In this document: positions 1-23,935 of the stretch, piece after piece
Layout of the letters: every line of letters begins with the position of its first letter
How positions within the stretch are numbered: the stretch's first letter is position 1
From: a virus
DNA length: 64,000 nucleotides
Virus record (IMG/VR): IMGVR_UViG_3300013117_000371
Strand: one strand, 5' to 3'
Translations under genes and position numbers: made by a program
The notes under the pieces: model-generated
What the model was told of the DNA's origin: nothing
The model's input: the letters and a program-made list of their open reading frames with translations, nothing else
The model's database searches: none

Positions 1-1249
1 AGGGAAGGTAGGCGTCCACTTCAGTCCCCACCCGGTACTCCTCCAGGTCCGGGAGCCCTAACTCGAAGTAACGGAAGCCCCCTACGAACGTAAAGATGTC
101 TTTGATGTACGCCCCGAACACGATGACTGTGGCGGATTGGCCGCCAGCGCCCCAGTCGACGCCCACGAACATGGGGTACACGCCGGCCCGAGCCAACACG
201 TTATCCTCAGTATTGGGCAGCTCCGCATCGCTGATCTTCTCAATCAGGGCGTCGGTGAAGACCTGCCGGGCCTGCGTCACGGACAGGGCGAAGGACTCCT
301 GCATGGTCTCGATTGGCCGCTGCTCCATGCTGGTCACGATGTCGTCGTAGTCAGTGTAGGGGGCGGCCAACTGAGGCAGCCGGAAGGCGTGCCAGGTGCG
401 GGGGGACTGGGTGCCCGTAGTCCGCAGCCACTTCCCCTCCAAGGTGTCAATGAGCCTCCCACACTTGTCGCAAATGGGGCCGGACCGGGAGAGGTTACGG
501 GGGGTAAGAATGTTCCAATGGAAGGAGTTCATATTGATCTGGCCCACCCCGCTGGACATCGACCGGCAAGAGCAAGGGATGCCCCACTCATGCTGGACGG
601 AGTACTTGTCCCAGTACACCCAGGCAGTGTTGTCAGTGGACAAGGGTGTGGCCGCATGGAGCTCATACTTGTAGGGGGAGTGGTGGAGCGAATGCTGCAA
701 CACCGGCACCACCTCCAACTGCACCAGCTCAAGCTCGTCCATCTCCAACATGTCAGCAGGCACACCACGAATTCGGGCGGCGTCACCAAAGGCGGTGCCT
801 GTCAGGATGCGGGAGCCAGTGTAGCTCTCCTTCTCCCGCCGGTTGTACATCAGCTGGACACCCCGCGTGTCGTAGATGCTCCTGAGGAACTCGGAGTGTT
901 TGATGAACCCGTCCAGCTTCCAGTGGGAGAACTCCATCGCTTGGGTGAGCGTCCCCGAAGTGTACTGGACGGTCATAGTCTGCAAAGTAGAAAGCAGGAG
1001 GGGAATTACCGCCAACGAGGTCGATTTTTCCAGTTGCCGGCCCCACAGAAAAAACATCTTCCTCATTGCCGGAAAGCTGTCCACAATCTGCCGGAGGAAA
1101 GGGCGGTCTTCATAACTGAGAGGCACCACCCCACTTGGAGTTTGGATGTTCAACAAAGTGGGCGCTAATTCAGACAGCGGAATAGGGGGCAACTCCAAAA
1201 TTTCCTCTTCCGACTCCTTGGGCGGTAACTGCCTGAACGGGAAAAGCAA
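1..1249 (-). CDS. terL: Phage terminase large subunit (GpA-like); 3' end lies beyond the left window edge
   Basis: Manual translation of the minus strand is open from a TTG at 1249 (after an AGGGGGGAC SD) to base 1. It contains LSYEDRPFLRQI, Walker A-like GRQLEKST, Walker B-like RIRGVPADMLEMDE, Cys pairs (CSC, CDKC) and the nuclease motif MFVGVDWG. Absent from the ORF track because there is no stop inside the window. Confidence 0.85.
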   Translation of the reverse strand, partial: MLFPFRQLPPKESEEEILELPPIPLSELAPTLLNIQTPSGVVPLSYEDRPFLRQIVDSFPAMRKMFFLWGRQLEKSTSLAVIPLLLSTLQTMTVQYTSGTLTQAMEFSHWKLDGFIKHSEFLRSIYDTRGVQLMYNRREKESYTGSRILTGTAFGDAARIRGVPADMLEMDELELVQLEVVPVLQHSLHHSPYKYELHAATPLSTDNTAWVYWDKYSVQHEWGIPCSCRSMSSGVGQINMNSFHWNILTPRNLSRSGPICDKCGRLIDTLEGKWLRTTGTQSPRTWHAFRLPQLAAPYTDYDDIVTSMEQRPIETMQESFALSVTQARQVFTDALIEKISDAELPNTEDNVLARAGVYPMFVGVDWGAGGQSATVIVFGAYIKDIFTFVGGFRYFELGLPDLEEYRVGTEVDAYLP

Positions 1250-1273
1250 GAGGTCCCCCCTTTTCGTCGTGGT

Positions 1274-1303
1274 ATTATAGCACTTAGTCGCCTTGAAAGG
1301 CAA
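1274..1303 (-). promoter_or_regulatory. sigma70-like promoter for terminase
   Basis: TTGCCT-N18-TATAAT with TGC before the -10 box, ~25 nt upstream of the start. Confidence 0.6.
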
Positions 1304-1410
1304 CCCTAACTACGAGGAGTACGCAACAGCCCTGAACAAGGAGCGCTCCCCCCGTCCTGCGGGCCCAGGGGAGACGTAGCCACCAGCACAAGGCTAAAGA
1401 AACTCGTTTT

Positions 1411-3216
1411 TTAACCTTGTGCCGGCACCGCTCGGCGAATGCACATCTCACACCGGCCGCAAGGGGAGCCGTTCTTCTGAGGAAACCAACATGACCAGGT
1501 CCGCTTGAGGATTGGGAGGTACTCCCGTTCTTCGCTGACGGCCAGCATGTGAGCCTTGGTACTCCTGATAAGGGGGAACACAAAGGGGCGGAAAATCTCG
1601 AGGGCCTTGTCTGTCAGCTCCGAGTAAGGTTTCAGCCGAATTCCCTGGGGAGTATCCACCACGTCGCTGCGGAGGAGCTTCTCCGCCCGCCCCCCCACCT
1701 CGATGCACAGCTCCATCTCCCCAAAGTGCTTAGCGAACCGGCAAAACGCCTCGTACTGCCTGCCCATCCTCTCCTTACCCGTGCCGCCGTACCCGATCTG
1801 TTTGGCTGCGGCAGTTACCAGGTGGTCGCCGGGGATGCCGTGAGATATCGAGTGGTCCCCCGGCCGGCCAACGTGCATGGTGGGGAGCACCTTACTTCGA
1901 GGGAACCTCTTCCGCAACAAGGGCCGGAGGGCCTGCATGGTGACAATTTCGGACATTTGGTTCTTGCGCATGTCAAGGGCGCTGGCCAAGTACACTGGGA
2001 GCACCTCTGCCCCCCCGTCCAGCAATTGGCAGATGCGGAACGTGGAGTCCCACCCCCCGGTCCACAGGACCGCCACGGGCCGGTCTCCCCCCACTGCCCG
2101 CATGTGCATCTCCCGCCCGGAAACCAAGGCCAACTGCTGCTCCTTATGCACGACCATCTCCGGATTGGCAATACCAGTGGACTTTCGAAAGGCGATATCG
2201 ATGGTGCGGCTCCCCTTCCCCGCCATGCCGTAGCAGGCGTTGATCTCCCATACCACCAGGTCGCCCTCGGGGGTGTACGAGTAGTCTACCGCCCCCGCAT
2301 CCAACCCCACCGCCCGGGCAGCTCGGAGTAGTATCTCGTCCCGGGCGGGGTCCGCCTCAGTGAACAAGCGCTGATTCTCCGCCACTGAAACAGGGCAACG
2401 CACTCCCACGGTGTGCCCCAGAGTCACTATCCACTGGTCGGAGAACATTGCCTGCCTGGGAATTACAGTGCCGCCGGCAATGTAGCAGCGGTATTTGCTG
2501 TAGAACCCGTCTCCCCGGCGCACATCGATATACTCCACTGCCAGGTCCAACTCAGGGTGCGCTTGGCGAATCTCCCGTTCCTCTTCCCGGGACCGGGCCA
2601 GGTACATGGAATTCCCCTGGCTCATTTTGCGGTCCCTCCGCAAAACAACCGGGTAGGGCAACCGCACTTCCTCCTTGGGGCCCAGCCGCTGGGACTGGGG
2701 GCACTTGATGCCCGCCTCCGCCCACTGCTGTAAAGAAGCGTGATGCCCGCACGCCTTTGTGGGTATCCCACTGAACACCGGGATTTTCAACTCCCGAGCC
2801 CGGGCCAGCAAACGCCGAGAGCGTTCCCAGAAAGGCCAAGGCTCGTCGCACGCCTCCCACCCGTGCGGCCATAGGAGGATGAGGTCGTAGCTGCGCAACT
2901 CTTCTTCCGGCAACTCGGGGTCTTCGCACAACGACCACTCCCAATGGAGGTCGTCCAGAATGCCCATGTGCAAAGCGGTCATGTAGGCCAAAGTTGCCCG
3001 CACGTATCCTACATGGAGGACGAAAAAAAGGGCCTTCATGCGGCGGGGGACCGAAGTAGGGCGGGCGCTCCCCCGCATCACTCCGTGCGGCTGCGGTTGG
3101 GTAATGTAATCGGGTCCGTTGATGACGGGGCGGGGGCGGCGCACAACCCGGGGCTGCCCTGAAGGGGGCAAAACTACCACTGGTCCCCGCCGCCTGCGCG
3201 GCCGCCGTCGTTGCAT
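1411..3216 (-). CDS. Fusion: Arg/Pro-rich N-tail + ATP-grasp (RimK-like) ligase + QueC-like PP-loop ATPase
   Basis: ATP-grasp features (YPVVLRR, AVEYIDV, KYRCYIAGG, GAVDYSYTPEGDLVVWEIN); PP-loop AVLWTGGWDST; C-terminal TWSCWFP...PCGRCEMCIRR Zn motif as in QueC. Confidence 0.7.
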   Translation of the reverse strand: MQRRRPRRRRGPVVVLPPSGQPRVVRRPRPVINGPDYITQPQPHGVMRGSARPTSVPRRMKALFFVLHVGYVRATLAYMTALHMGILDDLHWEWSLCEDPELPEEELRSYDLILLWPHGWEACDEPWPFWERSRRLLARARELKIPVFSGIPTKACGHHASLQQWAEAGIKCPQSQRLGPKEEVRLPYPVVLRRDRKMSQGNSMYLARSREEEREIRQAHPELDLAVEYIDVRRGDGFYSKYRCYIAGGTVIPRQAMFSDQWIVTLGHTVGVRCPVSVAENQRLFTEADPARDEILLRAARAVGLDAGAVDYSYTPEGDLVVWEINACYGMAGKGSRTIDIAFRKSTGIANPEMVVHKEQQLALVSGREMHMRAVGGDRPVAVLWTGGWDSTFRICQLLDGGAEVLPVYLASALDMRKNQMSEIVTMQALRPLLRKRFPRSKVLPTMHVGRPGDHSISHGIPGDHLVTAAAKQIGYGGTGKERMGRQYEAFCRFAKHFGEMELCIEVGGRAEKLLRSDVVDTPQGIRLKPYSELTDKALEIFRPFVFPLIRSTKAHMLAVSEEREYLPILKRTWSCWFPQKNGSPCGRCEMCIRRAVPAQG

Positions 3217-3226
3217 GGCACCCCCG

Positions 3227-4543
3227 TCAGCCCACTAATGGGCGACCGATGGACCAATAGGTGAATCCCGCCGCCCTCATTTCCTCCAGGCGGAACAAGT
3301 TGCGGCCGTCGAAGATCACCGGGGTGTTCATGGCCTCCTGAACTGCACCTAAGTCCGCCCCCTGGAACATCCCCCACTCGGTCATAATGGCCAGCGCATC
3401 CGCCCCCGCCACCGCAGCGTACAGGTCACCCGCAAAGGTGACCCCCGTAGGAAAAAGCTCCTGTGCTTTGGGCATCGCCGCCGGGTCGTACGCAACAACT
3501 TCAGCCCCCTGCGCCAACAACTGGACCAACAGCTCCCGTGCGGGGGCTTCCCTCATGTCGTCGGTGTTCGGTTTGAAAGCCAGCCCCCACACGGCCACCC
3601 GCTTCCCTGCAAGCCCACCCCGGTCCTTGAAGTAGCTGATAAGTGAGCGCCCTACCAATTGACGTTGCTGGGTGTTTACTTCATCGACACTGTGCGCTAT
3701 GCGTAGAGGAATATCGAGCTCGTTGGCCATGCGCAGCAAGGCACGCACGTCCTTGGGAAAACAGGAACCACCGTACCCGGCGCCGGCGAACAGGAAACGG
3801 TCCCCGATGCGGGCGTCCGCCCCCATCCCTCGGCGGACGGCGTCGACATCGCCGCCTACCGCAGCGCACAAGTCGGCCATCTCATTCATGAAGGAGATTC
3901 GCGTAGCCAACATAGCGTTGGCTCCGTACTTGGTAATCTCGGCACTCACTGCGTCCATGAACAAGATACGGCCGGTGCGCCGGTAAAAGGGGGCGTAGAG
4001 CGTCCTCATTACTGCCTGGGTAACGGGGCAACTCGAGCCGATGACGACGCGGTCCGGATTCAAGAAGTCCGCAACCGCCGTGCCCTCCTTGAGAAACTCG
4101 GGATTGGAGACCACCTCGATGGCCTCCCCGGCAGCCGCGCGGATAATCGCCGTAACTCGGGCGTTGGTGCCGACCGGCACGGTGCTCTTCAAGACCACTA
4201 TTTGGCCCTTGGACACAACCTCCCCGACCTGCTGCGCTACCGCGAGGACGTTGGAAAGGTCCGCCGAGCCGTCGACATCGGAGGGGGTACCCACAGCAAT
4301 GAACAGCACCTCGGACACCTTAACCGCGTCGTGCAAGTCGGTTGTAAATCGAAGGTTCCCTGTGGCCAACGCCCTACCCAAGCGCTGCTCCAAGCCAGGC
4401 TCGTAAATGTGAGGTACTCCCCGCGTCAAATTTTCCACCACGGCGGCGTTGCTGTCGACGCCGACAACGCTGTGGCCCTTTTCTGCAAAGCCAACCGCAG
4501 CGACCAAGCCTACGTACCCGGTTCCTACCAGTGCTATCTGCAT
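3227..4543 (-). CDS. ugd: UDP-glucose 6-dehydrogenase
   Basis: IALVGTGYVGL Rossmann motif, FIAVGTP, VLKSTVPVGT, SNPEFLKEG, GAGYGGSCFPKD, GLAFKPNTDDMRE, IFDGRN; GGAGG SD before the ATG at 4543. Confidence 0.95.
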   Translation of the reverse strand: MQIALVGTGYVGLVAAVGFAEKGHSVVGVDSNAAVVENLTRGVPHIYEPGLEQRLGRALATGNLRFTTDLHDAVKVSEVLFIAVGTPSDVDGSADLSNVLAVAQQVGEVVSKGQIVVLKSTVPVGTNARVTAIIRAAAGEAIEVVSNPEFLKEGTAVADFLNPDRVVIGSSCPVTQAVMRTLYAPFYRRTGRILFMDAVSAEITKYGANAMLATRISFMNEMADLCAAVGGDVDAVRRGMGADARIGDRFLFAGAGYGGSCFPKDVRALLRMANELDIPLRIAHSVDEVNTQQRQLVGRSLISYFKDRGGLAGKRVAVWGLAFKPNTDDMREAPARELLVQLLAQGAEVVAYDPAAMPKAQELFPTGVTFAGDLYAAVAGADALAIMTEWGMFQGADLGAVQEAMNTPVIFDGRNLFRLEEMRAAGFTYWSIGRPLVG

Positions 4544-4558
4544 CACTACCTCCGTCAA

Positions 4559-4801
4559 TTACTGAACTAACCGCAGCCCCGCCACACGCGCGTGTAGTGA
4601 ACTCAACGCCCCCACTTCAGGGGTCTCCGCCCAGCGCACATAGGCTTTCACTCGCGTTGCCAGGAAGCGCAGCAACGCCCATTGCTCAGTTGCCGACAAC
4701 GTTGCCGGAGGGACGTCGTGCGAGTAAGGGAAGTTCACCAGGGTCTGGTTCACAAATGCGGCTACCGGTGACGACCCAAGTATCTGGAAAACCCCCATCA
4801 C
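4559..4801 (-). CDS. Hypothetical protein (80 aa) in the modification operon
   Basis: Translationally coupled to both neighbours; no recognised motif. Confidence 0.6.
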   Translation of the reverse strand: MMGVFQILGSSPVAAFVNQTLVNFPYSHDVPPATLSATEQWALLRFLATRVKAYVRWAETPEVGALSSLHARVAGLRLVQ

Positions 4802-5529
4802 TCAGCTCCATCCTTAATTATTTGCGCAGCCTCTGCCCGCAACCATTCCCCTACTACTGGTACGAAGTCGTCGCTGTAGTGCGTAGGGCTCACCAACGCC
4901 TGCGCCAAGTCAGCAGGGAGTAGTAGCGACGGGTCCACTACCCGCACCCCCTCTACACGGCAAGACCGCAGCAACGCAAGGAGGACGTCCCTCCTTCGGC
5001 TCCTCCCGGGATTGCCGAAGGGGGCAAAGTCAGCGTTGAAGTGCGACACCACCAGCAAGGGGCACCCCAATAACCGACGCAGAACCGAAAGGTCCCGATT
5101 AATGTCGTTGACGTCCAAGAACCTCCGGTGTATCCCCCCAACCAACGGGGGCGCCCCCCCGTTGCCCCCTACTAAATGATCGCCGTCCCAGCTCATTTGG
5201 TACTTGTCCAGCACCTGCTCCTTGACACACCACCGGTGCAGCACGTACCGTCCCAGTTCGGCCTGCCGGAAGGTGCTGATTTCCACTACCGCCACAGCCA
5301 ATTTGGGAACGGGGACGGGCTCCTGGGGATGCTGCAAGATGAGATCCCGCAACTCGCAGGGAATCCTAACCTCGCCGACGACGTAGCCGACGAGTTGGGC
5401 TGCCTCACCCGAAGTGTGGGTCAGACCGTACAGGTCAGCGAAGCTATGCAATTTAGTTGGGCGGGGGAAACCCTCCCCTCCCCAAGCTAAGGGGGTGGCC
5501 ACCCGGCAACTGCCAATGACCCCAATCAT
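4798..5529 (-). CDS. Hypothetical protein with N-terminal GSCRV motif, possibly SGNH/GSCFA-like
   Basis: MIGVIGSCRVATPL, YGLTHTSGE, AVVEIST, LVVSHFN, PTHYSDD; ATGA overlaps with neighbours. Confidence 0.6.
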   Translation of the reverse strand: MIGVIGSCRVATPLAWGGEGFPRPTKLHSFADLYGLTHTSGEAAQLVGYVVGEVRIPCELRDLILQHPQEPVPVPKLAVAVVEISTFRQAELGRYVLHRWCVKEQVLDKYQMSWDGDHLVGGNGGAPPLVGGIHRRFLDVNDINRDLSVLRRLLGCPLLVVSHFNADFAPFGNPGRSRRRDVLLALLRSCRVEGVRVVDPSLLLPADLAQALVSPTHYSDDFVPVVGEWLRAEAAQIIKDGAE

Positions 5530-6536
5530 GGTTTGTCCCCACTAAGTTGCACCGACAAGGGGGAAAGCAAAGTACCTTCCGGATACAACGCAGCAACCGA
5601 GTCAGGGACAGCAACATGATTGGTCGTTGTCATCGCCACATTGGCCAAGCCGACATCCCGGAACAACCTCTCCCATTCGTGCGCCCGCAACCGATTCTGT
5701 GGGTAACCTACGCAATTGTCCCCCACTGCTCGGCGATAGTCTTCTTCCGACCAGGTCAAGAAATCCAGCGGCCCTTCGCCTAAACCGTGCCCGTCGATAC
5801 CGATAGTTGCCAAGAGCAGCGCTCCCGGACGAAGTAAGTCGTACATACGTTGCACGCAAGCAGCTGGATTAGGGACGTGCTCCAACGTCACTACGGAATA
5901 CACCAAGTCAAAACACGACTCCCCCGGAAAGTCCTCTACTCGAGTAGCGTAACGAACGCACCCCAAAGCAGGCGATAGGTCGGGAACATCAACAAAACGA
6001 GTAAGTAGGGAAACCAACGCTTGCAAATTCGTCTGGGGGCCCTCGTCTAACGTGGCCCCACTGAAAACGGCCCCCCGCATACCGCACGCAAGCAATTGCC
6101 CGTGATGGTCCGGGCCGAACCCCATCTCGAACACGTCTCGAGGGTCGTGGCCCCGCAACTTTCGGTACCACCTGAATTGCTGAGCTACCCCCGCCATATT
6201 GTGGAGCGGGCTCCCGCTGGTGTCCGCCCCTCGCAGTACCGTTCGGGCAACAAGGCCCTCCACTGCTGCAATATCAGCGTACCACCCCCGAGCCTGGGCA
6301 ACTCGCCGTACCAGGAAACGCCCCACACAGGGAGTGCACTCAAGAGGGGTACCCTTATCTGTTAGAACCACCGGAATTACTCGGTAAGTGCCTAACAATT
6401 CCTGCAAACTACGGGGGACCGCCGCCCACTCCTCTACACTGGTGAGGAAGAGGGTACCGCCATAGGTCCGCTCGAACCACTGAGTGAACTGGTCCAACCC
6501 ACAAGCCCCTGTTACACACTCTATAGGCGTATCCAT
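5526..6536 (-). CDS. Class I SAM-dependent methyltransferase (paralog 1)
   Basis: VFEMGFG (motif I-like), FDLVYSVVTLEHV, YDLLRPGA. Confidence 0.8.
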   Translation of the reverse strand: MDTPIECVTGACGLDQFTQWFERTYGGTLFLTSVEEWAAVPRSLQELLGTYRVIPVVLTDKGTPLECTPCVGRFLVRRVAQARGWYADIAAVEGLVARTVLRGADTSGSPLHNMAGVAQQFRWYRKLRGHDPRDVFEMGFGPDHHGQLLACGMRGAVFSGATLDEGPQTNLQALVSLLTRFVDVPDLSPALGCVRYATRVEDFPGESCFDLVYSVVTLEHVPNPAACVQRMYDLLRPGALLLATIGIDGHGLGEGPLDFLTWSEEDYRRAVGDNCVGYPQNRLRAHEWERLFRDVGLANVAMTTTNHVAVPDSVAALYPEGTLLSPLSVQLSGDKP

Positions 6537-6550
6537 CAGCCAAAAATCTC

Positions 6551-7162
6551 CTAATCGACCAACGTGTGCAGATAGGCAGCTCCTGACTCTCCGTACCTGG
6601 CCGAGTAGGGCCCGCCTGCCTGCTCCCAGGCAATAACCTCAGCAGGGTCTGCAATCAAGTCAGCAACCGACTTCAGCCCTCGCGAAGCAAAGCCAAACAG
6701 GGGGTCGAAAAACACGTAGCCCCCCTTCAGTAAAAACTCCACAACTGTGTGCTGCACTCCTGCCGCATTTGCAATGTGGACGTAGCGGGAAAAATACCCG
6801 ATAGTTGCCCCCAGGTAACGCAGAGCCAAACAGTACCCGGCACATGCGGCGACGTCCTCCCCCCGGAACAGCTTAGCCAGGTCGAAATGCTGATGCCAGT
6901 CGTCCTCCGGAATGCCAAGCTTAATGTTGTGCCGCACGTACCCCATGATAAAGGCAAGGAAGGCGTATTGCGCTGAAGGCACCCACAAGTTATGCACTAG
7001 ATTGTACACCGCCCCCCAAGGCTGACCTACCAGGTCGACCCCATAGTTGAACATACACCGGTCCATGTGCGTGCGTGCGCAAGCCAAATTGCGCCGAGCG
7101 AGCCTTACCCGAGGTTCTCCCACAACTTGTAGTACTCCGCATTGATAAAGTGGTGCGTCCAT
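6551..7162 (-). CDS. Transglutaminase-like (Cys-His-Asp) protein
   Basis: ACAGYCLAL...HTVVEF...VFFDPLFG triad pattern; SD before the ATG at 7162. Confidence 0.65.
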   Translation of the reverse strand: MDAPLYQCGVLQVVGEPRVRLARRNLACARTHMDRCMFNYGVDLVGQPWGAVYNLVHNLWVPSAQYAFLAFIMGYVRHNIKLGIPEDDWHQHFDLAKLFRGEDVAACAGYCLALRYLGATIGYFSRYVHIANAAGVQHTVVEFLLKGGYVFFDPLFGFASRGLKSVADLIADPAEVIAWEQAGGPYSARYGESGAAYLHTLVD

Positions 7163-8097
7163 TGCCACTCCCCCCTGGCAGCGTAGCACCGGTCACACTT
7201 GGCGCTCCTAGTATCGAAACGGTACCGTCCCTGCTTGACGATTTCCTCCCAGCTGCTCTCAGTCACGTTACCAATCGAGGCGTCGTACCTGTTGCAGCAG
7301 GGAAAAACATCCCCAGTGGGGCGCACGTACATGTACTTCGGGAAGGAACACCCAGGCACAGCCCACACAGGGGAGGCGCCATACTCACCCCCAATCCCGT
7401 GGACTGCCCCGAAGGAGATGCCGTGGCCTTCGCAGTAAGCCTGGGTTTCTTCCAAGCATTGCTGGTACTCCTCGCGTAACCCGTACAGGCTCTCTCCGAC
7501 CATCTCCTCAGTGCAGACATGCAACGTGTTGAGGAAAATCCACCGAATCCCCGGCAGCAACCGCAACAAGGGGATCACGTCCCCCATATTGCGGGCCGTA
7601 GCCATGTAGGAAAGCCCAACGTAGTTCCACCTACTCAGTGTGCTAATAGCCTCTCGGACGTTCTCCAAGACTACGTCGAACTTAGCCCCGGTACGCAGCC
7701 GCTCAAAGTTGTCCTTGAGCCCGTCCATTGAAAAGGACAACGAGTAGGTGTTGCGATTCAACAACGGCCACAGTTCCTGAGCTGGGAAGCGCCACATCCC
7801 GTTGGTGTTCAACTTCAAGGCAAACTTCCCATTCATATTGAGGTAGTCCAGCATCTTCAAGAAGTCGGGGTGGGTAGTGTGCTCCCCCTCCGAATTGATC
7901 TCGATGGTCCGATAAGGCGGGAGCTGGTCAATCAGCGCCTGCCACACGGCAAAGGGCATCCACTCGAGCTTTTTTTTCTCCTTGGTGTGCTGAGACCCGC
8001 ACATGCGGCAAGTGAGGTTGCACCCGGTAGTTAGCACAACATTAACGGCCTCTTGCGCCAATTGCTCGGTGCGCAACATGTGCGGGTACTCGGCCAT
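7105..8097 (-). CDS. Radical SAM enzyme with SPASM/Twitch domain
   Basis: CNLTCRMC (CxxxCxxC), GEHTTHPDF, LNTNG, SFSMDG, C-terminal CSFP..MYVRPTGDVFPCC...IGNV...CDRC. Confidence 0.9.
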   Translation of the reverse strand: MAEYPHMLRTEQLAQEAVNVVLTTGCNLTCRMCGSQHTKEKKKLEWMPFAVWQALIDQLPPYRTIEINSEGEHTTHPDFLKMLDYLNMNGKFALKLNTNGMWRFPAQELWPLLNRNTYSLSFSMDGLKDNFERLRTGAKFDVVLENVREAISTLSRWNYVGLSYMATARNMGDVIPLLRLLPGIRWIFLNTLHVCTEEMVGESLYGLREEYQQCLEETQAYCEGHGISFGAVHGIGGEYGASPVWAVPGCSFPKYMYVRPTGDVFPCCNRYDASIGNVTESSWEEIVKQGRYRFDTRSAKCDRCYAARGEWQWTHHFINAEYYKLWENLG

Positions 8098-8106
8098 TTC
8101 GCCCCT

Positions 8107-9096
8107 CTACACAGAACCGTAGGTGATCAGCTCGGTTACGTCGGCGTCCTCCCCCGTTACCTGGGAGTTCTCCGGGAGCTCGGTACGGTTCCGCACCTCG
8201 AACTCGACCTGCATTCCGGCCTGCTTCACTTGTGCCACGTACCAAGGCGCCCGCTCCCGGCGGCAGGGGAGGTACCCATGATGGTCCAAGTAGCCAACTT
8301 GCGCAGCCTCCCACTCTTCCTGCGTCATGGTCAAGAAGTGAAGCGGGTGCGGATCTCCGGAAATGCCATGACCGGACAAATCGGTGTAAGCAATGAACTG
8401 CCCACCCTTCTTGAGCAACCTCCGCACTTCACCCAGGAAGCCTTGCATGTTTTCCACGTGCTCCAGGACTACGTGCGCAAAGATGAGATCGTACTTCTTC
8501 CGCCGCAAGGGGAACTTCCCCCCTTCGCCCAAACGGTAGTCCCGAGCAACTCGCCGCTCGGCCTTCTCTATGAAAGAGGCAAGGTTGAGCTTGGCCAGTA
8601 CCTCCCGCTCCACCTCACGGAGCTCAGGATCGACCTCCCTCACCGCGGTGACGCCGGCGTACTCCGCCCCCCACATGTTGCAAGCGAGCATTGACCCTAC
8701 CGGGCTATCGCCGAAACCAAGCTCGAGAACGGTTTTGGGCAGTTTCCCCATCTTCGCCTCGTAAAGGTCCATATAGAAATTGAGGATGCCTAAGCTGTGA
8801 ATCATGTTCGGCTGCGCATCGAAAAGGGCCGCCGTGATGTCTCGAAAGCCCCGGTTGACCTTACGACTGTGCACAGTGAGCAGGTTCCGAGCGGCGGACC
8901 ACAACGAATCGAAATTGTCAAGTGCTTCGGGGTCGGTGCTGGGCAGCAAGAAGGCTACCCCGTAGCGTTCCCCCAACAGGGTGGCCAGGGGCCCAGGCTC
9001 CTCAGTGACTGCGATGCAGGTGGTGCCTGCTCGCTTTTGCGTCATCTCAGCGAGAACCTCGGGGAGGTACTCAGGCATGTTGACTTTGATAACCAT
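8107..9096 (-). CDS. Class I SAM-dependent methyltransferase (paralog 2)
   Basis: VLELGFG, YDLIFAHVVLEHV, RRLLKKGGQFI; start placed at the ATG after GGAGA (track start 9135 also possible). Confidence 0.8.
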   Translation of the reverse strand: MVIKVNMPEYLPEVLAEMTQKRAGTTCIAVTEEPGPLATLLGERYGVAFLLPSTDPEALDNFDSLWSAARNLLTVHSRKVNRGFRDITAALFDAQPNMIHSLGILNFYMDLYEAKMGKLPKTVLELGFGDSPVGSMLACNMWGAEYAGVTAVREVDPELREVEREVLAKLNLASFIEKAERRVARDYRLGEGGKFPLRRKKYDLIFAHVVLEHVENMQGFLGEVRRLLKKGGQFIAYTDLSGHGISGDPHPLHFLTMTQEEWEAAQVGYLDHHGYLPCRRERAPWYVAQVKQAGMQVEFEVRNRTELPENSQVTGEDADVTELITYGSV

Positions 9097-10166
9097 GTCT
9101 TTCTCCTTTTCGATTGGCACACGCTGCGAAGACAAGCGAGGAGAGCTTCTGCTGCCCCCATCGGGTCCACCTTACGATAGCGCAGCTGCTGCTTCTCAGC
9201 GAGTGCATGGGTGATTGCTGCTGCAAACGTCTCAATTGACAAATCCGGGCAACACAACGGGGGAGGGTGCTTATCTATGTTCCCCACATTGGTTGAGACT
9301 ACTACGTTGCACCCCAACTTGGCCGCCTCGGCGTACAAATTGGGGGAAGGGTCGTACATGGAAGGGATGACTACTACTCGCGAGTTGCCCAAAAGCGTCA
9401 ACATGGTAGCGTGGTCGACCAACCCGAAGTCAATGACGTTGGGCAAGGGCAGGTTCAGCCGGTCACCGCATACGGCGATGCGCACTTGAGGAAACCGCCG
9501 AGCGACCGCCTCCAGCAGCCCCCGGTTTTTCATCCTCCGCCCCCAATCCGAGGCGGAGAAGCACAAACCGAACTGACGCTCCCGGTAGGGGCGGGCCCAT
9601 TCACTGTTGATGGGAGGCACAGCAATATCCGGAGTGTAAATAACCGAGTCCCGGTGGATCTTGGCTACCAACTTCGCCGGGAAATATTTACGGTAGTAGG
9701 CCAAATCGATGGTGCTGTGAACAAGTACGTGGTCGGCACTCCCAAACGCTACGAAGTCGTTGTTGCCCTCAGGCGGGGGCTCCTGGACTTGGTGGTAGGG
9801 CTTGCCTGAGCGCGAGATGAAGTCTACTCCCGACGTCAGGTACACTTTGGGTACGTCGGTGCGTTTCCGCAGCACCCAAGGCGCATCGTAGTTCTTCCCT
9901 ACCATCACATCGAAATCACCCGCAAGAAGGGCTGGGTCATCCCGTTGGCACCACCCTGTAGCCCGAATTCCCCCGATCCGGTCGGGGTCGCTCCAGTTGC
10001 CGGTGATGTCGTAAGGAAGGCCCAGATGCCGGCATTTGCCGCAGTGGTCAATAGCTACCCCCAGCACCCCGCACCCCAATTGCCGCAAACGCTTCACTGT
10101 CTCGTACGCCTCAGTAGAGGCGCCCCCGTAACCAGGCGGTTGGTTCCACACATAGCAAATCCGCAT
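9042..10166 (-). CDS. GT-B glycosyltransferase (family 4-like)
   Basis: MRICYV...GYGGAS, VVVIPSMYDPSPNLYAEAAKLGCNVVVSTNVG (EX7E-like motif). Confidence 0.8.
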   Translation of the reverse strand: MRICYVWNQPPGYGGASTEAYETVKRLRQLGCGVLGVAIDHCGKCRHLGLPYDITGNWSDPDRIGGIRATGWCQRDDPALLAGDFDVMVGKNYDAPWVLRKRTDVPKVYLTSGVDFISRSGKPYHQVQEPPPEGNNDFVAFGSADHVLVHSTIDLAYYRKYFPAKLVAKIHRDSVIYTPDIAVPPINSEWARPYRERQFGLCFSASDWGRRMKNRGLLEAVARRFPQVRIAVCGDRLNLPLPNVIDFGLVDHATMLTLLGNSRVVVIPSMYDPSPNLYAEAAKLGCNVVVSTNVGNIDKHPPPLCCPDLSIETFAAAITHALAEKQQLRYRKVDPMGAAEALLACLRSVCQSKRRKTWLSKSTCLSTSPRFSLR

Positions 10167-11914
10167 CAGTCGATAAACTCCCGAAACCATAACTCCAGCG
10201 AAACCAACTTGTACAGCTGACGGTCGAATTCCCCCCGTCTCAATTTAGTGTGCACGTTAGGGTCGTGCGGGAGGCGCCTGCGCAAGCCTCGAACCAACTC
10301 GTCCGCCCACTCCGTAAGTGGCCCCTGAAGCCAACGAGTGGCCGGCACCACCAACCCTTTTTTGTCCGCCCGCTCCGTGACTGAGGAGGGGACCCCGATT
10401 CGCCGACCAACCTCGCGCAGAATCCACTTAGTCTGCCCCTCAACCAACTTCAAGTGCGGGACAGAGAAACAGAACTGCATGACGTTGGGGTCCAAGTAGG
10501 GGCAGAACGCCTCCAGCCCAAATGCGGTGGCGTCGCTCGCGCCCATGTGCATCTGCGCGGGGTAGGTAAGGTTAAACTCTACGTTGCCGAGTGAATTGGG
10601 GAGCTGCGGGAACTCATTGAAGTACCTAGTCACCTGCTCTCGCTGCTCCCGTCCACTAGTAGGGGAACGATCCGTAACTCGGAGGTGCTGCTCCAGCGGC
10701 GACGCTTCAGCCAACTCTGGAGTTGCCCATAAGTACTCAGCCAACGGCCGGTAGGCATGGCAAGAAGTGGCACCAAGGAACTGCTCCGTCAAGTCCCCCT
10801 CACCCGCATGCTGCGCCCCGTACATGATAAGCAAATGCCGAATGTACCCACTGAGGAGCTCATCCGGCCCATGGCCAAAAACGCAGGAAGAGAAGCCCAA
10901 CTCCTGCGTCTTCTTTGCCATCATGAAATTGGAGATAGGGGAGAAAGTGGCAACGATGCCCTCAAGGTTCCGAATGATTTCCGGGAAGTACTTCCTGAAA
11001 TCATCTGCCGTGGGGCGGACGTAGTGAACTCCGGCCCCAATGGAGGCAGCCACCGCAAGGGCGTACTCAAGCTCGTCGAAGGCATCCCCGTACCCTTCGT
11101 AGGTGTTGACAATGACCTGTTCTGGGCGCATCAGCGCAGCCAAGACCGCCGAGTCCAGTCCCCCTGAAACGGTGAAGCCCTGGTTGTCCCGGCGGCAAGT
11201 CTCCGCCGACTGGCGCAGCAACTGCTCAAAAGCAACCACACTTTGCGTGGGGGAGCCCTGCACAAGGGGGACACGCGGGTGCCAGTACCGGATAGCCGCC
11301 GGCGTCGTTGACCCCCAAGCGAAGTGAACAATGTGCTGCGCGGGGACCTGGTGGATACCTTCAAACATCGTTGCAGCAGCAACGGGGAATTCGAAAGTCC
11401 ATAAATCCTGGGTAATATGGGGAACGGCGGGCACCAAAGTCAACAAGGAGCTAATCTTGTTGGCAAAGAGCACACCTCCCTTCTTGTCGACATGGTAATA
11501 GAGAACACTGCCCCACGCTGGGTCAACTGCCAACCACAGCCCTTCGAAGGTTTGCACTACCAGGGCGAACAACCCACGCAACGCAGACACCGTCAGGTAC
11601 ACCCCCATTCCTTCAACCAACGCCCGCACTACTTCTGCGTCGCCGGCCCCCTTCTTGTGAGGAACGTGGGTGGCAATAAGGGCTTCCCGATTTTGTAAAT
11701 AGCCGGAGAAGAAAACAGTAGCGTCGCCCAGGGACAAGGGCCCGCTGGAAACAGTGGGGGGGAGCGTAGCGGCCAAGGCCATCTCCGTACCCTCCTCATA
11801 AAGGAGCGGGGCCCCTCTTCCATACCGGTGACGACAAACCGACACCATCGCCCGAGGGTCACCCTCCCGACGATATACTCCGGCGTAAATCACAAATCCT
11901 CCCAATGCGCTCAA
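10166..11914 (-). CDS. Asparagine synthetase (AsnB)-like amidotransferase without an N-terminal catalytic Cys
   Basis: SGYLQNREAL, LRGLFALV, VSGGLDS, FGHGPDELLSGY, CPYLD, KWILRE, DKKG. Starts MSALGG (or MIYAG from a GTG at 11893) rather than MCG. Confidence 0.85.
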   Translation of the reverse strand: MSALGGFVIYAGVYRREGDPRAMVSVCRHRYGRGAPLLYEEGTEMALAATLPPTVSSGPLSLGDATVFFSGYLQNREALIATHVPHKKGAGDAEVVRALVEGMGVYLTVSALRGLFALVVQTFEGLWLAVDPAWGSVLYYHVDKKGGVLFANKISSLLTLVPAVPHITQDLWTFEFPVAAATMFEGIHQVPAQHIVHFAWGSTTPAAIRYWHPRVPLVQGSPTQSVVAFEQLLRQSAETCRRDNQGFTVSGGLDSAVLAALMRPEQVIVNTYEGYGDAFDELEYALAVAASIGAGVHYVRPTADDFRKYFPEIIRNLEGIVATFSPISNFMMAKKTQELGFSSCVFGHGPDELLSGYIRHLLIMYGAQHAGEGDLTEQFLGATSCHAYRPLAEYLWATPELAEASPLEQHLRVTDRSPTSGREQREQVTRYFNEFPQLPNSLGNVEFNLTYPAQMHMGASDATAFGLEAFCPYLDPNVMQFCFSVPHLKLVEGQTKWILREVGRRIGVPSSVTERADKKGLVVPATRWLQGPLTEWADELVRGLRRRLPHDPNVHTKLRRGEFDRQLYKLVSLELWFREFID

Positions 11915-13124
11915 CGAGGCCGTGGAACCGGCTGGCCCAACTCCAGGACCGCTGCATTACTTCGCGGTTTTTCCGTCCCCACTTCCGGTGCAGGGCAGCG
12001 CACGCCTTGAATGTCTCCAAGGCCTCGACAATGCCCGCCACTGAATCCTCCAAAATGAGCACGCCCCCCTGGGAGCAGGCGTGGATCTCCGGGACTAAAC
12101 CTACGGGAGTTGAAATGTAAGGCAGCCCCGAAGCCGCCCCCTCCATGATCGGGTTGGGGGTTCCTTCGCTGGTGGAAACACAGACAATGGCTGAAAGTCC
12201 TCGGTACCACTCAGGCATGGCTACGTAGGGAATCCTCTTTCGCGCGATGTCGGCGACGACTAGCTCCACCCCTGAAACTTGCGCTGCCGCCTCCTCTAAT
12301 TTCTGTAAGTTCTTTACTCCTCGCGCCACTTTGGAGTTCCCTGCCCAACCAACCCGAAGAACGGGAGACTTCAGCCGATTAACTGAAGGGGTAAACATTC
12401 GTGCATCTACCCCATCAGACATGTACTCAATAGGCCGCCCCAACACCTCGCGCAATTCCTCCACCAGCAGCTGACTTGCCCCCGTGATGATGTCCGCCCG
12501 CTCAACTGCTGTGTCGAACTCAGTTCGGTGCCGCTTCCACAGATAATGGCTGTACACGCAAAGGACCAAAACGGCCTCTTTTGGGAGCAGGGGAAGGACG
12601 TTGCTTGCTGCCCGCCAACGGATTAACGTAACTACCTCGTACCCCCGCAAATCCGGAATTGCCGCCGACGGCACTATTTCCACATGCCATGAAGGGGGAA
12701 AGTTAGCCGCCATATGACGAGCAATATTGTGGAAGACCTCTTCCGGCCTATGATAAACCAGTAGGGCCCTCCCCGTAGTACCCAAGCTCAGGGGGAGTGC
12801 CGAGAGTTCGCTCAGAGTAACTTCGACATCCGCAGCTGCCCGAGGTCTACCAGAACTTGTGTCCAAGGGCTTTTTCTGGGCCACTGCTGCTCCACCTGCA
12901 ACGAACGGGGAGGGGGGGCTGCGCTTAACAACCCCCCCATGCCGTACCGGTGTCTTCGCTTCACAAGGGGAGGGGCCCCCCCGATGATTGGGCGAAACCA
13001 ATGGGCGGCCCCCAGGCCCCCTCACAAGTACAGGGCCTTTCTTAGAGGGGCGACGTTTCCCCCTCTTTTTTGCCCGCTCCCCTACGAGTGTCCTAGTAAT
13101 TTTCACGTTGTCGGACCGGGCCAT
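11859..13124 (-). CDS. GT-B glycosyltransferase (family 4-like) with basic N-terminal extension
   Basis: DGVDARMF, LRVGWAGN, VCVSTSEGTPNPIMEGAASGLPYISTPVG; first ~95 aa are Lys/Arg/Pro-rich. Confidence 0.85.
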   Translation of the reverse strand: MARSDNVKITRTLVGERAKKRGKRRPSKKGPVLVRGPGGRPLVSPNHRGGPSPCEAKTPVRHGGVVKRSPPSPFVAGGAAVAQKKPLDTSSGRPRAAADVEVTLSELSALPLSLGTTGRALLVYHRPEEVFHNIARHMAANFPPSWHVEIVPSAAIPDLRGYEVVTLIRWRAASNVLPLLPKEAVLVLCVYSHYLWKRHRTEFDTAVERADIITGASQLLVEELREVLGRPIEYMSDGVDARMFTPSVNRLKSPVLRVGWAGNSKVARGVKNLQKLEEAAAQVSGVELVVADIARKRIPYVAMPEWYRGLSAIVCVSTSEGTPNPIMEGAASGLPYISTPVGLVPEIHACSQGGVLILEDSVAGIVEALETFKACAALHRKWGRKNREVMQRSWSWASRFHGLVERIGRICDLRRSISSGG

Positions 13125-13144
13125 GACTCCCCCAATTCATTTAA

Positions 13145-13173
13145 GTTTTACACTATTACTCCCCCGTGCGCAA
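13145..13173 (-). promoter_or_regulatory. Promoter for the modification operon
   Basis: TTGCGC-N17-TAAAAC upstream of the GT start. Confidence 0.45.
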
Positions 13174-13202
13174 CTCAAAACTTTCGCCCCATCTGCTATA
13201 AG
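13174..13202 (+). promoter_or_regulatory. Promoter of the TATAAG class
   Basis: CTCAAA-N17-TATAAG with TGC extension, at the start of the + strand block. Confidence 0.5.
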
Positions 13203-13262
13203 AGAAATGGGAGGAGGGAATTGCCCTCACTCCCAAAATAGGCTATTTTTATGGAGGGTTAA

Positions 13263-13820: not shown

Positions 13821-13916
13821 GATTCAGAGCCAATCACCAACCTCACCGCAGACAACGCCAAGCCTGGGCAAGGTGCTCGTGTGGAGGAGTTGCTGCTTGC
13901 TTACTGGAGGGTGCCT

Positions 13917-14939
13917 ATGGCAAGCCGGAACATGGAGCTGTCTCAAAAGCAACTGCGTGAGCTGAACCGAGCCAAGGCTGGGGACTTCTCGGCTTACGAC
14001 AAAGTCATCATCGCTTTTAGCGGTGGGAAGGACTCCCAAGCCAGCACGATGAAGTTGCTGGACCTCGGGTGCCCGCCAGAGCAAATGTACCTGTGGCACC
14101 ACGACGTGGAGGGCGGGGCCACCCCCTTCTTTGATTGGCCCTGCACGTCCGACTACTGCTGCGCCGCCGCTGAGCAGCTGGAAATCGACCTCTACTTCTC
14201 GTGGAAGGAAGGGGGCTTTCGCAGGGAGCTACTACGAGACAATGAGCCCACTGCCCCCACCTCTTTGGAGTTGGTTGGGGGCGGCATCGCCCGCACAGGC
14301 GGGAAGGGCCCCAAGGGCACCAGGCGACGGTTCCCGGCCATCGCTGCCGACCTGACCCGGCGCTGGTGCTCAGCCTACCTCAAAATCGACGTGGGCGACA
14401 AAATCTTCGCCAACGACCCAACCTTCGCACGGGGGTTCTTCCTGTTCGTCACCGGAGAGAGGCGAGAGGAATCCCCTGGTCGGGCCAAGTACTTGGAAGC
14501 GGAAAACGATCGGGCCTCCACCAGGAAGCGAATCATCACTCACTGGCGGCCGGTCATCGACTTTCCTGAGAAGCAAGTGTGGGACACCATCAAGAACTAT
14601 GGGGTCAACCCCCATCCGGCGTACCACCTGGGCTTCGGCCGGCTGTCTTGCGCTGCCTGCATCTTCGGCAACCCAGACCAGTGGGCCACCGTACGGGAAC
14701 TCTTCCCGGAACAGTTTGCTGAAATTGCCGAGTACGAAGTGGCATTGCGGCATACACTGCGCGACGGGACGACCCTTCCCGAACTCGCTGATAGGGGAAC
14801 CAGCTACCTCAGGTGGCTCCCCCACTCGGCAGCCTGGGCCATAGAAGCCGGGCGCAGTCACCAGTACAATCACCCCATCACTACGGACCCATGGGAATGC
14901 CCAACGGGCGCCTTCAAGAAGGGCGGAGGACCAACATAA
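13917..14939 (+). CDS. PAPS reductase-like (PP-loop) protein
   Basis: IIAFSGGKDS, RWCSAYLKI, TGERREES, RLSCAACIFG; GGAGGG SD before the ATG at 13917. Confidence 0.85.
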   Translation: MASRNMELSQKQLRELNRAKAGDFSAYDKVIIAFSGGKDSQASTMKLLDLGCPPEQMYLWHHDVEGGATPFFDWPCTSDYCCAAAEQLEIDLYFSWKEGGFRRELLRDNEPTAPTSLELVGGGIARTGGKGPKGTRRRFPAIAADLTRRWCSAYLKIDVGDKIFANDPTFARGFFLFVTGERREESPGRAKYLEAENDRASTRKRIITHWRPVIDFPEKQVWDTIKNYGVNPHPAYHLGFGRLSCAACIFGNPDQWATVRELFPEQFAEIAEYEVALRHTLRDGTTLPELADRGTSYLRWLPHSAAWAIEAGRSHQYNHPITTDPWECPTGAFKKGGGPT

Positions 14940-23234: not shown

Positions 23235-23246
23235 GCCCACTTGTAG

Positions 23247-23333
23247 TGGGAAGGGGAGGATTCGAACCCCCGTGTTTACCCGTTCGGGACCTGGTCTACA
23301 GCCAGGCGCCATCAACCACTCGGCCACCTTCCC
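23247..23333 (-). tRNA. tRNA-Tyr(GTA)
   Basis: GGGAAGG/CCTTCCC acceptor, CCTGG-CT GTA GA-CCAGG, long variable arm, TTCGAAT; CCA not encoded. Confidence 0.9.
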
Positions 23334-23334
23334 A

Positions 23335-23421
23335 TGGTACGGGAGGGGGGACTCGAACCCCCACGAGCTTGCGCCCACTAGATCCTGAATCTAGCGCATC
23401 TGCCAGTTACGCCACTCCCGC
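23335..23421 (-). tRNA. tRNA-Leu(CAG)
   Basis: CTAGA-TT CAG GA-TCTAG, variable arm, TTCGAGT, ACCA end. Confidence 0.93.
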
Positions 23422-23422
23422 A

Positions 23423-23509
23423 TGGTACCGAGGGGGAGACTCGAACTCCCACGAGCTTTCGCCCACAGCGCCCTCAACGCTGCGCATCTGCCAATTACGC
23501 CACCTCGGT
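23423..23509 (-). tRNA. tRNA-Leu(GAG)
   Basis: CAGCG-TT GAG GG-CGCTG, variable arm, ACCA end. Confidence 0.92.
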
Positions 23510-23526
23510 ATCCTCTCAAAGAACAG

Positions 23527-23610
23527 TGCTCGGGGTGGGGGTCGAACCCACGTGGGCTTGCGCCCCAGGGATTTTAAGTCCCCTGCCTGAGCCAGCTCGG
23601 CAACCCGAGC
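23527..23610 (-). tRNA. tRNA-Leu(TAA)
   Basis: GCTCGGG/CCCGAGC acceptor, loop CT TAA AA, variable arm, TTCGACC. Confidence 0.88.
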
Positions 23611-23614
23611 GCAG

Positions 23615-23698
23615 TACCGGGGGCGGGAATCGAACCCGCACGACCTTGCGGCCACCGACTTTTGAGGCCGGCGCATCTGCCAGTTACGCCACCCCGGC
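23615..23698 (-). tRNA. tRNA-Leu(CAA)
   Basis: CCGGC-CT CAA AA-GTCGG, variable arm, TTCGATT. Confidence 0.9.
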
Positions 23699-23710
23699 AA
23701 AGCAACGATT

Positions 23711-23824: not shown

Positions 23825-23851
23825 AACAGCTGCAAATGATTTCCTGAAAAG

Positions 23852-23934: not shown

Positions 23935-23935
23935 G

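Follow-up and report, generated by a model that had tools for sequence, protein, structure and literature searches.

To our knowledge, sugar-building genes are frequent in large phages and a target has been demonstrated for almost none. Among the closest described systems, the virions of the mycobacteriophages Che8, Corndog and Myrna are glycosylated (Freeman et al. 2023, Cell Host Microbe, as outlined in PMC12619734), and giant-virus capsid glycans are built by viral cytoplasmic enzymes (PMC9614988). Viral sugar genes also occur in hypervariable regions, as reported for pelagimyophages (PMC7029224), for the cyanomyovirus S-SCSM2R and P-SSM2 (PMC12801897) and for chloroviruses, which encode UGDH and a hyaluronan synthase (PMC9614988). 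The Vi-antigen machinery makes an acidic, O-acetylated glycan that is built in the cytoplasm (PMC8760489), the C-terminal ATP-grasp domain of Cj1438, from the Campylobacter jejuni capsule, amidates the C6 carboxylate of glucuronic acid in the growing polysaccharide (PMC11800379), and the QueC-family (PF06508) enzymes Cap9 and QatC conjugate a carboxylate to a protein N-terminus (bioRxiv 10.1101/2025.04.06.647259; PMC13279940; PMC13329287). Here we analysed a locus of eleven genes beside the large terminase gene terL in a 64,000-nucleotide stretch of viral DNA (the window), which corresponds to bases 76261-140260 of the 145,296-bp IMG/VR virus record IMGVR_UViG_3300013117_000371. The evidence argues strongly that this locus is a glycan-building and glycan-tailoring cassette. 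As to what the cassette modifies, we tentatively favour a cytoplasmic, strain-variable system whose most likely substrates would be virion proteins, which would thereby receive a variable glycan coat.

The eleven open reading frames (ORFs) were all located on the minus strand between positions 1411 and 13124 of the window, without internal stops and in the order given by a preliminary description of this DNA: a first glycosyltransferase (GT4a), an AsnB-like enzyme, a second glycosyltransferase (GT4b), a methyltransferase (MT1), a radical S-adenosylmethionine (SAM) enzyme, a transglutaminase-like protein, a second methyltransferase (MT2), a TviD-like protein, an 80-aa protein, Ugd and an ATP-grasp/QueC-like fusion enzyme (AGQ). 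Genes overlapped or were separated by gaps of at most 50 nt, most of them were preceded by GGAG-type ribosome-binding sites, and the GC patterns at codon positions were gene-like across the operon. The catalytic motifs appeared intact when read by eye (EX7E in GT4a, CX3CX2C, GGSCFPKD, SGGLDS, TGGWDS and ExN). A hydropathy scan predicted soluble products, none of them membrane-like.

The sugar-building functions were the most clearly assigned. GT4a (11859..13124) encodes a GT-B glycosyltransferase of the GT4 type, which matched the Pfam families Glycos_transf_1 and Glyco_trans_1_4 (E 2e-9; 38.3 bits for a cut-off of 27 and 32.9 bits for one of 26.4, respectively). Its EX7E motif, whose role is taken from the description of TviE (PMC8760489), reads E-GTPNPIM-E by eye. 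The GT4a family is small (25 matches), and the NCBIfam matches of GT4a were weak (TviE, TuaC, EpsE and the PEP-CTERM stp2 glycosyltransferase). The product of GT4b (9042..10190) is a second, divergent GT-B glycosyltransferase with a borderline match to Glyco_trans_1_4 (26.9 bits for a cut-off of 27), none in NCBIfam, and a D-PSPNLYA-E motif that represents a D-x7-E variant of E-x7-E. Ugd (3227..4558), a UDP-glucose 6-dehydrogenase of the kind that makes UDP-glucuronate, carried PF03721, PF00984 and PF03720 (8e-59, 1e-34 and 3e-32, respectively) and the catalytic cysteine motif GGSCFPKD, and scored 430 bits with the NDP-sugar dehydrogenase model TIGR03026 (cut-off 190). With the TuaD equivalog model it reached 465 bits, under the cut-off of 700, and UDP-glucose would be its predicted substrate. 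MT1 (8107..9135; Methyltransf_11, 2e-10) and MT2 (5526..6536; Pfam) are class I SAM-dependent methyltransferases, the former with an N-terminal extension of ~130 aa, and they are paralogues with 27% identity (blastp of MT2 against MT1, 2e-14). A CmoA/CmoB-like assignment of the two was rejected, as the similarity was that of class I methyltransferases in general (E 0.004) and CmoA gave no match.

The gene at 4798..5529, previously described as a GSCRV protein, proved to be real, but its likely identity had been missed: it encodes a TviD_N-like, SGNH-type putative polysaccharide O-acetyltransferase. The NCBIfam TviD model matched residues 3-66 at 1.8e-5, far under its full-length cut-off, and no Pfam family matched at E 0.01. 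Atlas features placed the protein at 0.96 with TviD_N clusters (PF27354), many of which are viral. Block I corresponds to G6-S7-C8, and His217 lies in S-P-T-H, that is, SxxH and not DxxH. In TviD the block I cysteine is essential and the block V aspartate is dispensable (PMC8760489).

Comparison with related contigs separated constant from changing parts of the locus. In a 14-kb metagenome contig (L004), a GT4a homologue was followed by ten other genes, an AGQ homologue and terL. This GT4a homologue was 45-52% identical and fused to a second GT4, and the AGQ homologue was 46% identical. The interior comprised three methyltransferases, a GT4, a GT2-like protein, two SDR epimerase/dehydratases and two unknown paralogues, with no Ugd, and its genes were unrelated to those inside the window cassette apart from a marginal match between the GT4 and GT4b (E 0.003). 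Paralogous ~300-aa proteins with no Pfam match, sharing the motifs VIDRGGL and GELRxTRPRPPAExKFDE, were encoded at L004:4847-5728 and L004:6935-7852. In another contig (L003) AGQ stood immediately before terL, and a 4424-bp ENA contig appears to carry a second AGQ homologue (P0001) adjacent to a 73%-identical terL (P0007). Conservation beside terL, which had been proposed as a check of the whole set, thus held for GT4a and AGQ in L004 and for AGQ in L003, but the interior genes were not kept. In more distant relatives (terL 38-39% identical; L087) a helicase gene was found upstream of terL and no cassette was present; the helicase in its place indicates that the cassette is a lineage-specific insertion. 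As judged from these comparisons, the cassette is a hypervariable island in a fixed slot upstream of terL, with two constant flank genes, GT4a at the 5′ end and AGQ at the 3′ end. The terminase genes themselves also differed: terL of L004 (L004:12017-13528) was 70% identical to that of the window over the N-terminus and was then interrupted right after the Walker-A sequence GRQTEK, probably by an intein. The 1017-aa terL of a related phage (P0009) contained intein and LAGLIDADG Pfam domains, and terL in the window was uninterrupted.

The two flank enzymes also share a peptide. GT4a begins with a basic N-terminal tail of ~110 aa that bears the motif KKGPVLVRGPGGRPLVSPNH, and the basic tails of GT4a and AGQ both contain [RK][RK]GPVxV...G[RQ]PxV (window 12996-13043 and 3145-3198, respectively), which had no other occurrence in the 145-kb record. 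The peptide recurred in the GT4a homologue of L004 and in P0001, a looser related form was present in the AGQ tail of L004, and GT4a-family proteins beyond this phage lineage were devoid of it. At 9 of the 13 conserved residues the window and L004 used different synonymous codons; the change of codons under kept residues points to selection on the motif as a peptide. We speculate that the peptide could serve as a common docking element on the acceptor. Tat-signal and AT-hook assignments of the basic tails were rejected, as neither consensus was recognised by eye. Because GT4a and AGQ do not vary, their most probable site of action is the part of the product that does not vary either, which may be its attachment to the acceptor or a shared primer.

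AGQ (1411..3216) combines, according to Pfam and PHROG matches, the basic tail with an ATP-grasp ligase (residues ~105-345) and a QueC-family PP-loop/Zn-ribbon domain (~375-601). The AlphaFold2 (AF2) models used in this work were of moderate confidence (predicted local distance difference test, pLDDT, 61-62), and several motifs were read by eye. Foldseek searches related the ATP-grasp region (regional pLDDT 70-90) to VanA, Ddl, RimK and LysX at E values from 4e-8 to 6e-7, and E324 and N326 of its E-x-N Mg site were invariant among homologues; the Pfam RimK match reached 17.9 bits for a cut-off of 21. The QueC Pfam match (2e-7, 31 bits for a cut-off of 22) covered the last 50 residues only. The QueC hallmarks were present as variants, TGGWDS and Cx9CxxCxxC, that were kept in all homologues. 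Structural matches of the PP-loop region were MnmA, QueC (3bl5, E 3e-4), Cap9 and QatC, with TM scores of 0.41-0.52 for a model of pLDDT 62. Reading residues 386-601 by eye revealed neither of the canonical QueC motifs, YxQxHxxE and VPxRN, and the canonical QueC model TIGR00364 gave 23 bits for a cut-off of 150. A Pfam scan at E 0.01 listed only QueC and RimK and gave no TupA-family match. Lacking the QueC substrate motifs, and with no TGT in the record, AGQ is better regarded as a QueC-family ligase than as a preQ0 synthase; the nitrile formation once ascribed to this domain is unlikely because the canonical substrate motifs are missing (cf. PMC13329287). Full-length homologues of AGQ were very rare, 2 among 5.8 billion proteins, and the fusion may catalyse a new amide-forming conjugation. 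The proposal that an ATP-grasp enzyme amidates the carboxylate of glucuronate does have a biochemical precedent in the C-terminal domain of Cj1438, Cj1438C (PMC11800379). However, AGQ is kept in L004 in the absence of Ugd, and its carboxylate substrate therefore need not be a uronate derived from Ugd.

The AsnB-like ATP-dependent amide synthetase (10166..11914) matched Asn_synthase PF00733 over nearly the whole profile (3e-36, 126 bits), together with GATase_7, and retained the PP-loop SGGLDS. Its start is likely the ATG at 11848, which follows a GGGAGGG ribosome-binding site. Neither the TTG start (M-S-A-L-G-G) nor the ATG start (M-V-S-V-C) places a cysteine at position 2. TIGR01536 gave 144 bits for a cut-off of 267, all NCBIfam matches remained below their cut-offs, including a weak one to the XrtA/PEP-CTERM amidotransferase, and the closest match in the PDB was beta-lactam synthetase (8e-9). 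The missing cysteine nucleophile and the proximity to beta-lactam synthetase suggest that this enzyme does not use glutamine, and takes ammonia or another amine instead. Three amidation steps on one uronate, as put forward in the preliminary description, were an over-reading, given that AGQ persists without Ugd. The broader idea of a uronate glycan that is methylated, amidated and radically tailored fits the gene content, but AGQ is not specifically a uronate-tailoring enzyme.

The radical SAM enzyme (7105..8097; Pfam Radical_SAM and SPASM) has the CX3CX2C motif and scored 35 bits with SPASM PF13186 (cut-off 21.5). Its only C-terminal cysteines are C250, C268/269, C301 and C304, the Cx2Cx5Cx3C block being shortened to Cx2C, and its second-best NCBIfam match was the twitch-type NF033640 (6e-15, 55 bits for a cut-off of 170). 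This cysteine set suggests a single auxiliary cluster, of the Twitch-like kind, comparable to that of BtrN. A Twitch-like set weakens the need for a peptide substrate. The transglutaminase-core-like protein (6551..7189) resembled Transglut_core clusters in its language-model features (0.95) and in structure (TM 0.72), and a plausible putative Cys-His-Asp arrangement was seen by eye, but the hidden Markov model of PF01841 gave no match even at E 10, so that the earlier call was only partly supported. As judged from the matches to these clusters, the start of this gene is probably M46, at window position 7054. The 80-aa orphan protein (4559..4801), whose GTG start overlaps the preceding stop by 4 nt, looks coding from its GC contents at the three codon positions (0.64/0.47/0.68) and from its AAGGA..GGAG ribosome-binding site. 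It had zero homologues among 1.84 billion representative proteins and no PqqD match.

These last genes allow another explanation, in which the locus makes a lasso peptide, another ribosomally synthesized and post-translationally modified peptide (RiPP) or a glycopeptide: the AsnB-like enzyme would serve as lactam cyclase and the transglutaminase-like protein as leader protease, with the radical SAM enzyme as a maturase, the 80-aa ORF as the precursor or a recognition element and the ATP-grasp domain as a graspetide-type ligase. The AsnB-like enzyme, with no glutaminase cysteine and beta-lactam synthetase as its nearest relative in the PDB, gave weak NCBIfam matches to lasso and macrolactam cyclases, and a transglutaminase-like fold and a radical SAM enzyme with a SPASM-type domain are present. 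However, the lasso cyclase match (42 bits for a cut-off of 525) ranked below those to AsnB and to the exopolysaccharide (EPS) amidotransferase, the radical SAM cysteine set is just Twitch-like, the candidate genes lie apart, no space for a separate precursor ORF was seen, and 6 of the 11 genes plainly encode sugar enzymes. Transglut_core3 (PF13471) and PqqD/RRE (PF05402) were unmatched in the record at E 10 in searches whose controls gave matches, and we rejected this explanation, to which we give very little probability.

What the cassette lacks bears on where it acts. CheckV estimated the record to be 79% complete, and every genome-wide absence reported here is bounded by the missing 21%. 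In agreement with the absence of a flippase, polymerase and exporter noted earlier, none of the proteins from the 165 ORFs of the 145-kb record had more than three predicted membrane-spanning segments in the hydropathy scan, a crude method, and no ABC permease or initiating polyprenyl-phosphate glycosyltransferase was found among them. With no lipid-carrier function, flippase, polymerase or exporter encoded, a phage-made cytoplasmic macromolecule is the most likely acceptor. The alternative that has to be weighed here is remodelling of the host envelope, in which an acidic, O-acetylated and amidated polysaccharide would be assembled on a host lipid carrier and sent out by host exporters, blocking superinfection or altering adsorption. 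The logic of Ugd, a GT4 and a TviD_N-like enzyme parallels Vi-antigen synthesis by TviB, TviE and TviD (PMC8760489), and the weak matches of GT4a to TviE, TuaC, EpsE and stp2, together with that of the AsnB-like enzyme to the XrtA/PEP-CTERM amidotransferase, lead in the same direction. Of 39 bacterial loci with homologues of the AGQ ATP-grasp domain, 7 had GT2, GT4 and an ABC exporter next to it, which also speaks for a glycan cassette as such. Published work on large marine phages leans towards the envelope (PMC7029224, PMC12801897), surface changes of this kind having been proposed for the 'LPS' clusters of cyanophages and pelagiphages, and chloroviruses, which alter the host surface with hyaluronan by means of UGDH and hyaluronan synthase, provide a viral precedent (PMC9614988). 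Against this stand the lack of an initiating phosphoglycosyltransferase, flippase, polymerase and ABC permease in the 145 kb, and the lack of the TPR domain that TviD requires for membrane association (PMC8760489). In addition, tyrosine and serine recombinase family searches of the record found no integrase although their controls worked; a temperate lifestyle, which would favour envelope remodelling, is hence not evident, and lysogenic conversion is weakened as an explanation. A lineage-specific basic peptide on the flank enzymes is also hard to reconcile with a host-lipid acceptor. We consider envelope remodelling a less probable explanation that nevertheless deserves some weight.

Packaged DNA is another cytoplasmic macromolecule that the cassette might decorate, and it had been named before as a possible acceptor. 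According to this explanation, the glycosyltransferases and three ATP-dependent amide ligases would attach a sugar, uronate or amide adduct to a base of the phage DNA as a protection against restriction, with the basic tails as DNA-binding arms. Hexuronic acid is possible in phage DNA glycans, on 5-hydroxymethylcytosine (Pyle et al., bioRxiv 10.1101/2023.12.21.572611), and the phage AsnB homologue CmoY joins glycine to 5-carboxymethylcytosine (PMC12783734). The Arg/Lys-rich tails of GT4a and AGQ have GRP cores, terL is next to the cassette, and on the far side of the divergent gap there is a PAPS-reductase-like gene. However, the known entry enzymes were missing: C5-methyltransferase/CmoX (PF00145), ThyA-like, TGT/DpdA, ParB_N and CmoA families gave no match in the 145 kb in searches whose controls worked, so that DNA was left without any known enzyme to provide a handle for the glycan. 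A TET search (PF12851) also gave no match in the record, and its control was likewise silent. GT4a and GT4b matched families of the Glycos_transf_1 type only, and not phage DNA glycosyltransferase families. At E 1e-5 the AsnB-like enzyme had a single weak match among GenBank phages, in an unrelated and unannotated record, in a set whose inclusion of S-B43, the source of CmoY, was unchecked. We know of no role in DNA modification for TviD-like O-acetyltransferases or transglutaminase-like proteins. Altogether, DNA hypermodification seems improbable.

Virion proteins, in contrast, are the acceptor that we would guess at. They are favoured by the soluble nature of all the enzymes, the slot beside packaging and head genes, the docking-like peptide, a variation among strains of the kind that exposed glycans typically show and the precedents of mycobacteriophages and giant viruses. 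The chemistry of each step can be proposed from the predicted enzymes. Ugd would supply UDP-glucuronate, and GT4a and GT4b would add sugars. The TviD-like enzyme could O-acetylate the glycan and MT1 and MT2 methylate it, while the Twitch-like radical SAM enzyme might oxidise or rearrange one sugar position. The AsnB-like enzyme without the cysteine would convert a carboxylate to an amide with ammonia or an amine, and one or two amide bonds at the constant end would be due to AGQ. A more specific version is that GT4a and AGQ constitute a conjugation module, of a type not described before, which docks on a capsid or portal protein or on packaged DNA and links the glycan through an amide, the interior genes serving to diversify the glycan. 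The idea parallels protein deazaguanylation by Cap9 and QatC, in that a QueC-type or ATP-grasp domain activates a carboxylate for an amine, and we regard it as an unlikely but specific possibility.

Several observations weigh against a virion target. No virion protein is directly tied to the glycan, and 21% of the genome lies outside the record. GT4 enzymes, Ugd and the TviD-like and AsnB-like proteins are characteristic of the loci in which bacteria encode capsule and EPS synthesis. PHROG annotation recovered next to nothing for ten genes that follow terL, and these putative structural genes showed no obvious acceptor feature. GT4a and the TviD-like protein were unmatched (E 1e-3) in 50,697 GenBank phage records, the proven virion-glycosylating mycobacteriophages included. 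A 132-kb IMG/VR phage (L002) encodes two AGQ-type ATP-grasp copies (L002:3060-4079 and L002:11954-12979) beside ThiF, VWA, DUF932 and methyltransferases, with no glycosyltransferase nearby, which indicates that the AGQ-type ATP-grasp family is not confined to glycan settings. Finally, late co-expression of the operon with the head genes is unsupported, given a promoter-like site of terL itself and hairpins after AGQ, both of which are described below.

The presumed promoter region, the 138-nt divergent intergenic gap at 13125..13262, contains a ribosome-binding site (GGGGGAG) that precedes the ATG of GT4a by 2 nt, and a sigma-70 scan found no site in the gap; the operon's own promoter, which had been assumed, was hence not recovered. 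Overall, sigma-70 site counts equalled those in shuffled sequence, and a 9-mer scan for a promoter motif shared upstream of GT4a returned only words resembling ribosome-binding sites. At the other end, paired strong RNA hairpins on the minus strand (1305..1425), covering the AGQ stop codon and the stretch behind it, possibly mark the 3′ end of the operon transcript. They consist of a 16-bp stem spanning the stop and a 10-bp GC-rich stem (-52.4 kcal/mol, z -2.84), and with no U-tail they do not form a canonical terminator. Beyond them, the gpA-type large terminase gene terL (2..1303, minus strand, running past the window edge; phrog_675, 6e-29) contains at 1303-1274 a near-consensus promoter-like site with an extended -10 (TTGCCT-18-TGcTATAAT, 10/12 with TG in the promoter scan). 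The true start of terL is probably the TTG at 1249 and not 1303, because the N-terminus MLFPFRQLPPKE then agrees with the homologue consensus; a strong ribosome-binding site, AAGGGGGG, lies directly upstream of this TTG. The promoter-like site together with the hairpins over the AGQ end makes the operon look like a separate transcription unit. On the other side of the divergent gap lies the PAPS-reductase-like (PP-loop) gene (window 13881-14939; phrog_424, 1.7e-35). Elsewhere in the genome (66229-67068, L083:9969-10808), the gene that directly follows the one for the putative major capsid protein encodes a product with a long repeat of Pro, Lys and Glu (PKPKPKPEPKPEAKPEAKPEPKPE...).

The phage itself is distant from any cultured relative. 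No terminase of a GenBank phage shared more than 24% identity with its terL, a nucleotide search with the 13-kb region gave zero matches among phage records, and AGQ, GT4a and the TviD-like protein had no close relative among GenBank phages. In IMG/VR, scans with single proteins (AGQ, terL and GT4a) were empty and relatives were recovered by alignment-based scans only. GT4a was also present on a 183,892-bp contig, and the full phage genome is probably ~184 kb long; judged by these comparisons, phages of ~184 kb form a new lineage to which it belongs. The best bacterial matches of Ugd (~50% identity) were scattered across Gemmatimonadota, Pseudomonadota, Bacteroidota and Planctomycetota and gave no pointer to the host. 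Window positions 23246-24009 hold seven clustered tRNA genes, four of them for Leu and one each for Tyr, Pro and Ile.

With its clean architecture and no export genes, the locus lends itself well to finding out what cassettes of this type modify. If virion proteins are indeed the target, phage self-glycosylation would reach far past the mycobacteriophages and would gain acidic, amidated and acetylated glycans, which would bear on how particles evade adsorption blocks or immune recognition. Compared with the mycobacteriophage system, as far as it is outlined in the source cited above, the cassette resembles it in having soluble phage glycosyltransferases and methyltransferases near structural and packaging genes, a cytoplasmic glycan and no exporter. 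It differs in being much larger, in a GT4a that was unrelated to any of the phage records searched, and in a virion target that is putative and read from the genes; relative to that outline, Ugd, the AsnB-like, radical SAM, transglutaminase-like and TviD-like proteins and the ATP-grasp/QueC fusion are extras. With the TviB/TviE/TviD machinery for the Vi antigen of Salmonella Typhi and Bordetella (PMC8760489), it shares a nucleotide-sugar 6-dehydrogenase, a GT4 and a Gly-Ser-Cys SGNH O-acetyltransferase. In contrast to that machinery, Ugd is of the UDP-glucose type (TuaD-like) whereas TviB is of the UDP-GlcNAc type, TviC and the vex ABC exporter are lacking, the TviD-like protein has no TPR/membrane-association domain and carries SxxH and not DxxH in block V, and the context is that of a phage.

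The clusters of marine phages and chloroviruses are similar in their virus-encoded Ugd, their many glycosyltransferases, sugar epimerases and radical SAM genes and their position in hypervariable regions. The present locus departs from them in forming one compact operon at a fixed position next to terL, with conserved flanks that bear the shared peptide, three ATP-dependent amide-forming domains and no synthase like hyaluronan synthase. Unlike the TupA-like Cj1438C, AGQ has no TupA-family match, resembles the fold of Ddl/RimK/LysX and is kept in a relative that lacks Ugd. As in the QueC family, whose members use ATP to activate a carboxylate that ammonia or a protein amine then attacks, AGQ has a PP-loop and a C-terminal Cys4 zinc motif, but its motifs are variants, it is fused to an ATP-grasp domain and the record lacks the partners TGT, QueD and QueE. 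The phage S-B43, with CmoA, CmoX and CmoY (PMC12783734), also has an AsnB-family ligase, which there forms an amide on a carboxylate handle; unlike S-B43, this record has no homologues of CmoA or of C5-methyltransferase/CmoX. The clusters of Pyle et al. combine a methyltransferase, 5mYOX/TET and a DNA glycosyltransferase, whereas PF00145 was absent here, with a good control, from a record that is 79% complete. Since phage glycan clusters of unknown target have been described before (PMC7029224, PMC12801897; Freeman 2023 in PMC12619734), calling this locus the best candidate for a new system was an overstatement. What is distinctive here is the design of conserved flanks around a variable core, the shared peptide, the rare ATP-grasp/QueC fusion and the set formed by the TviD-like, Cys-less AsnB-like, Twitch-like radical SAM and transglutaminase-like proteins.

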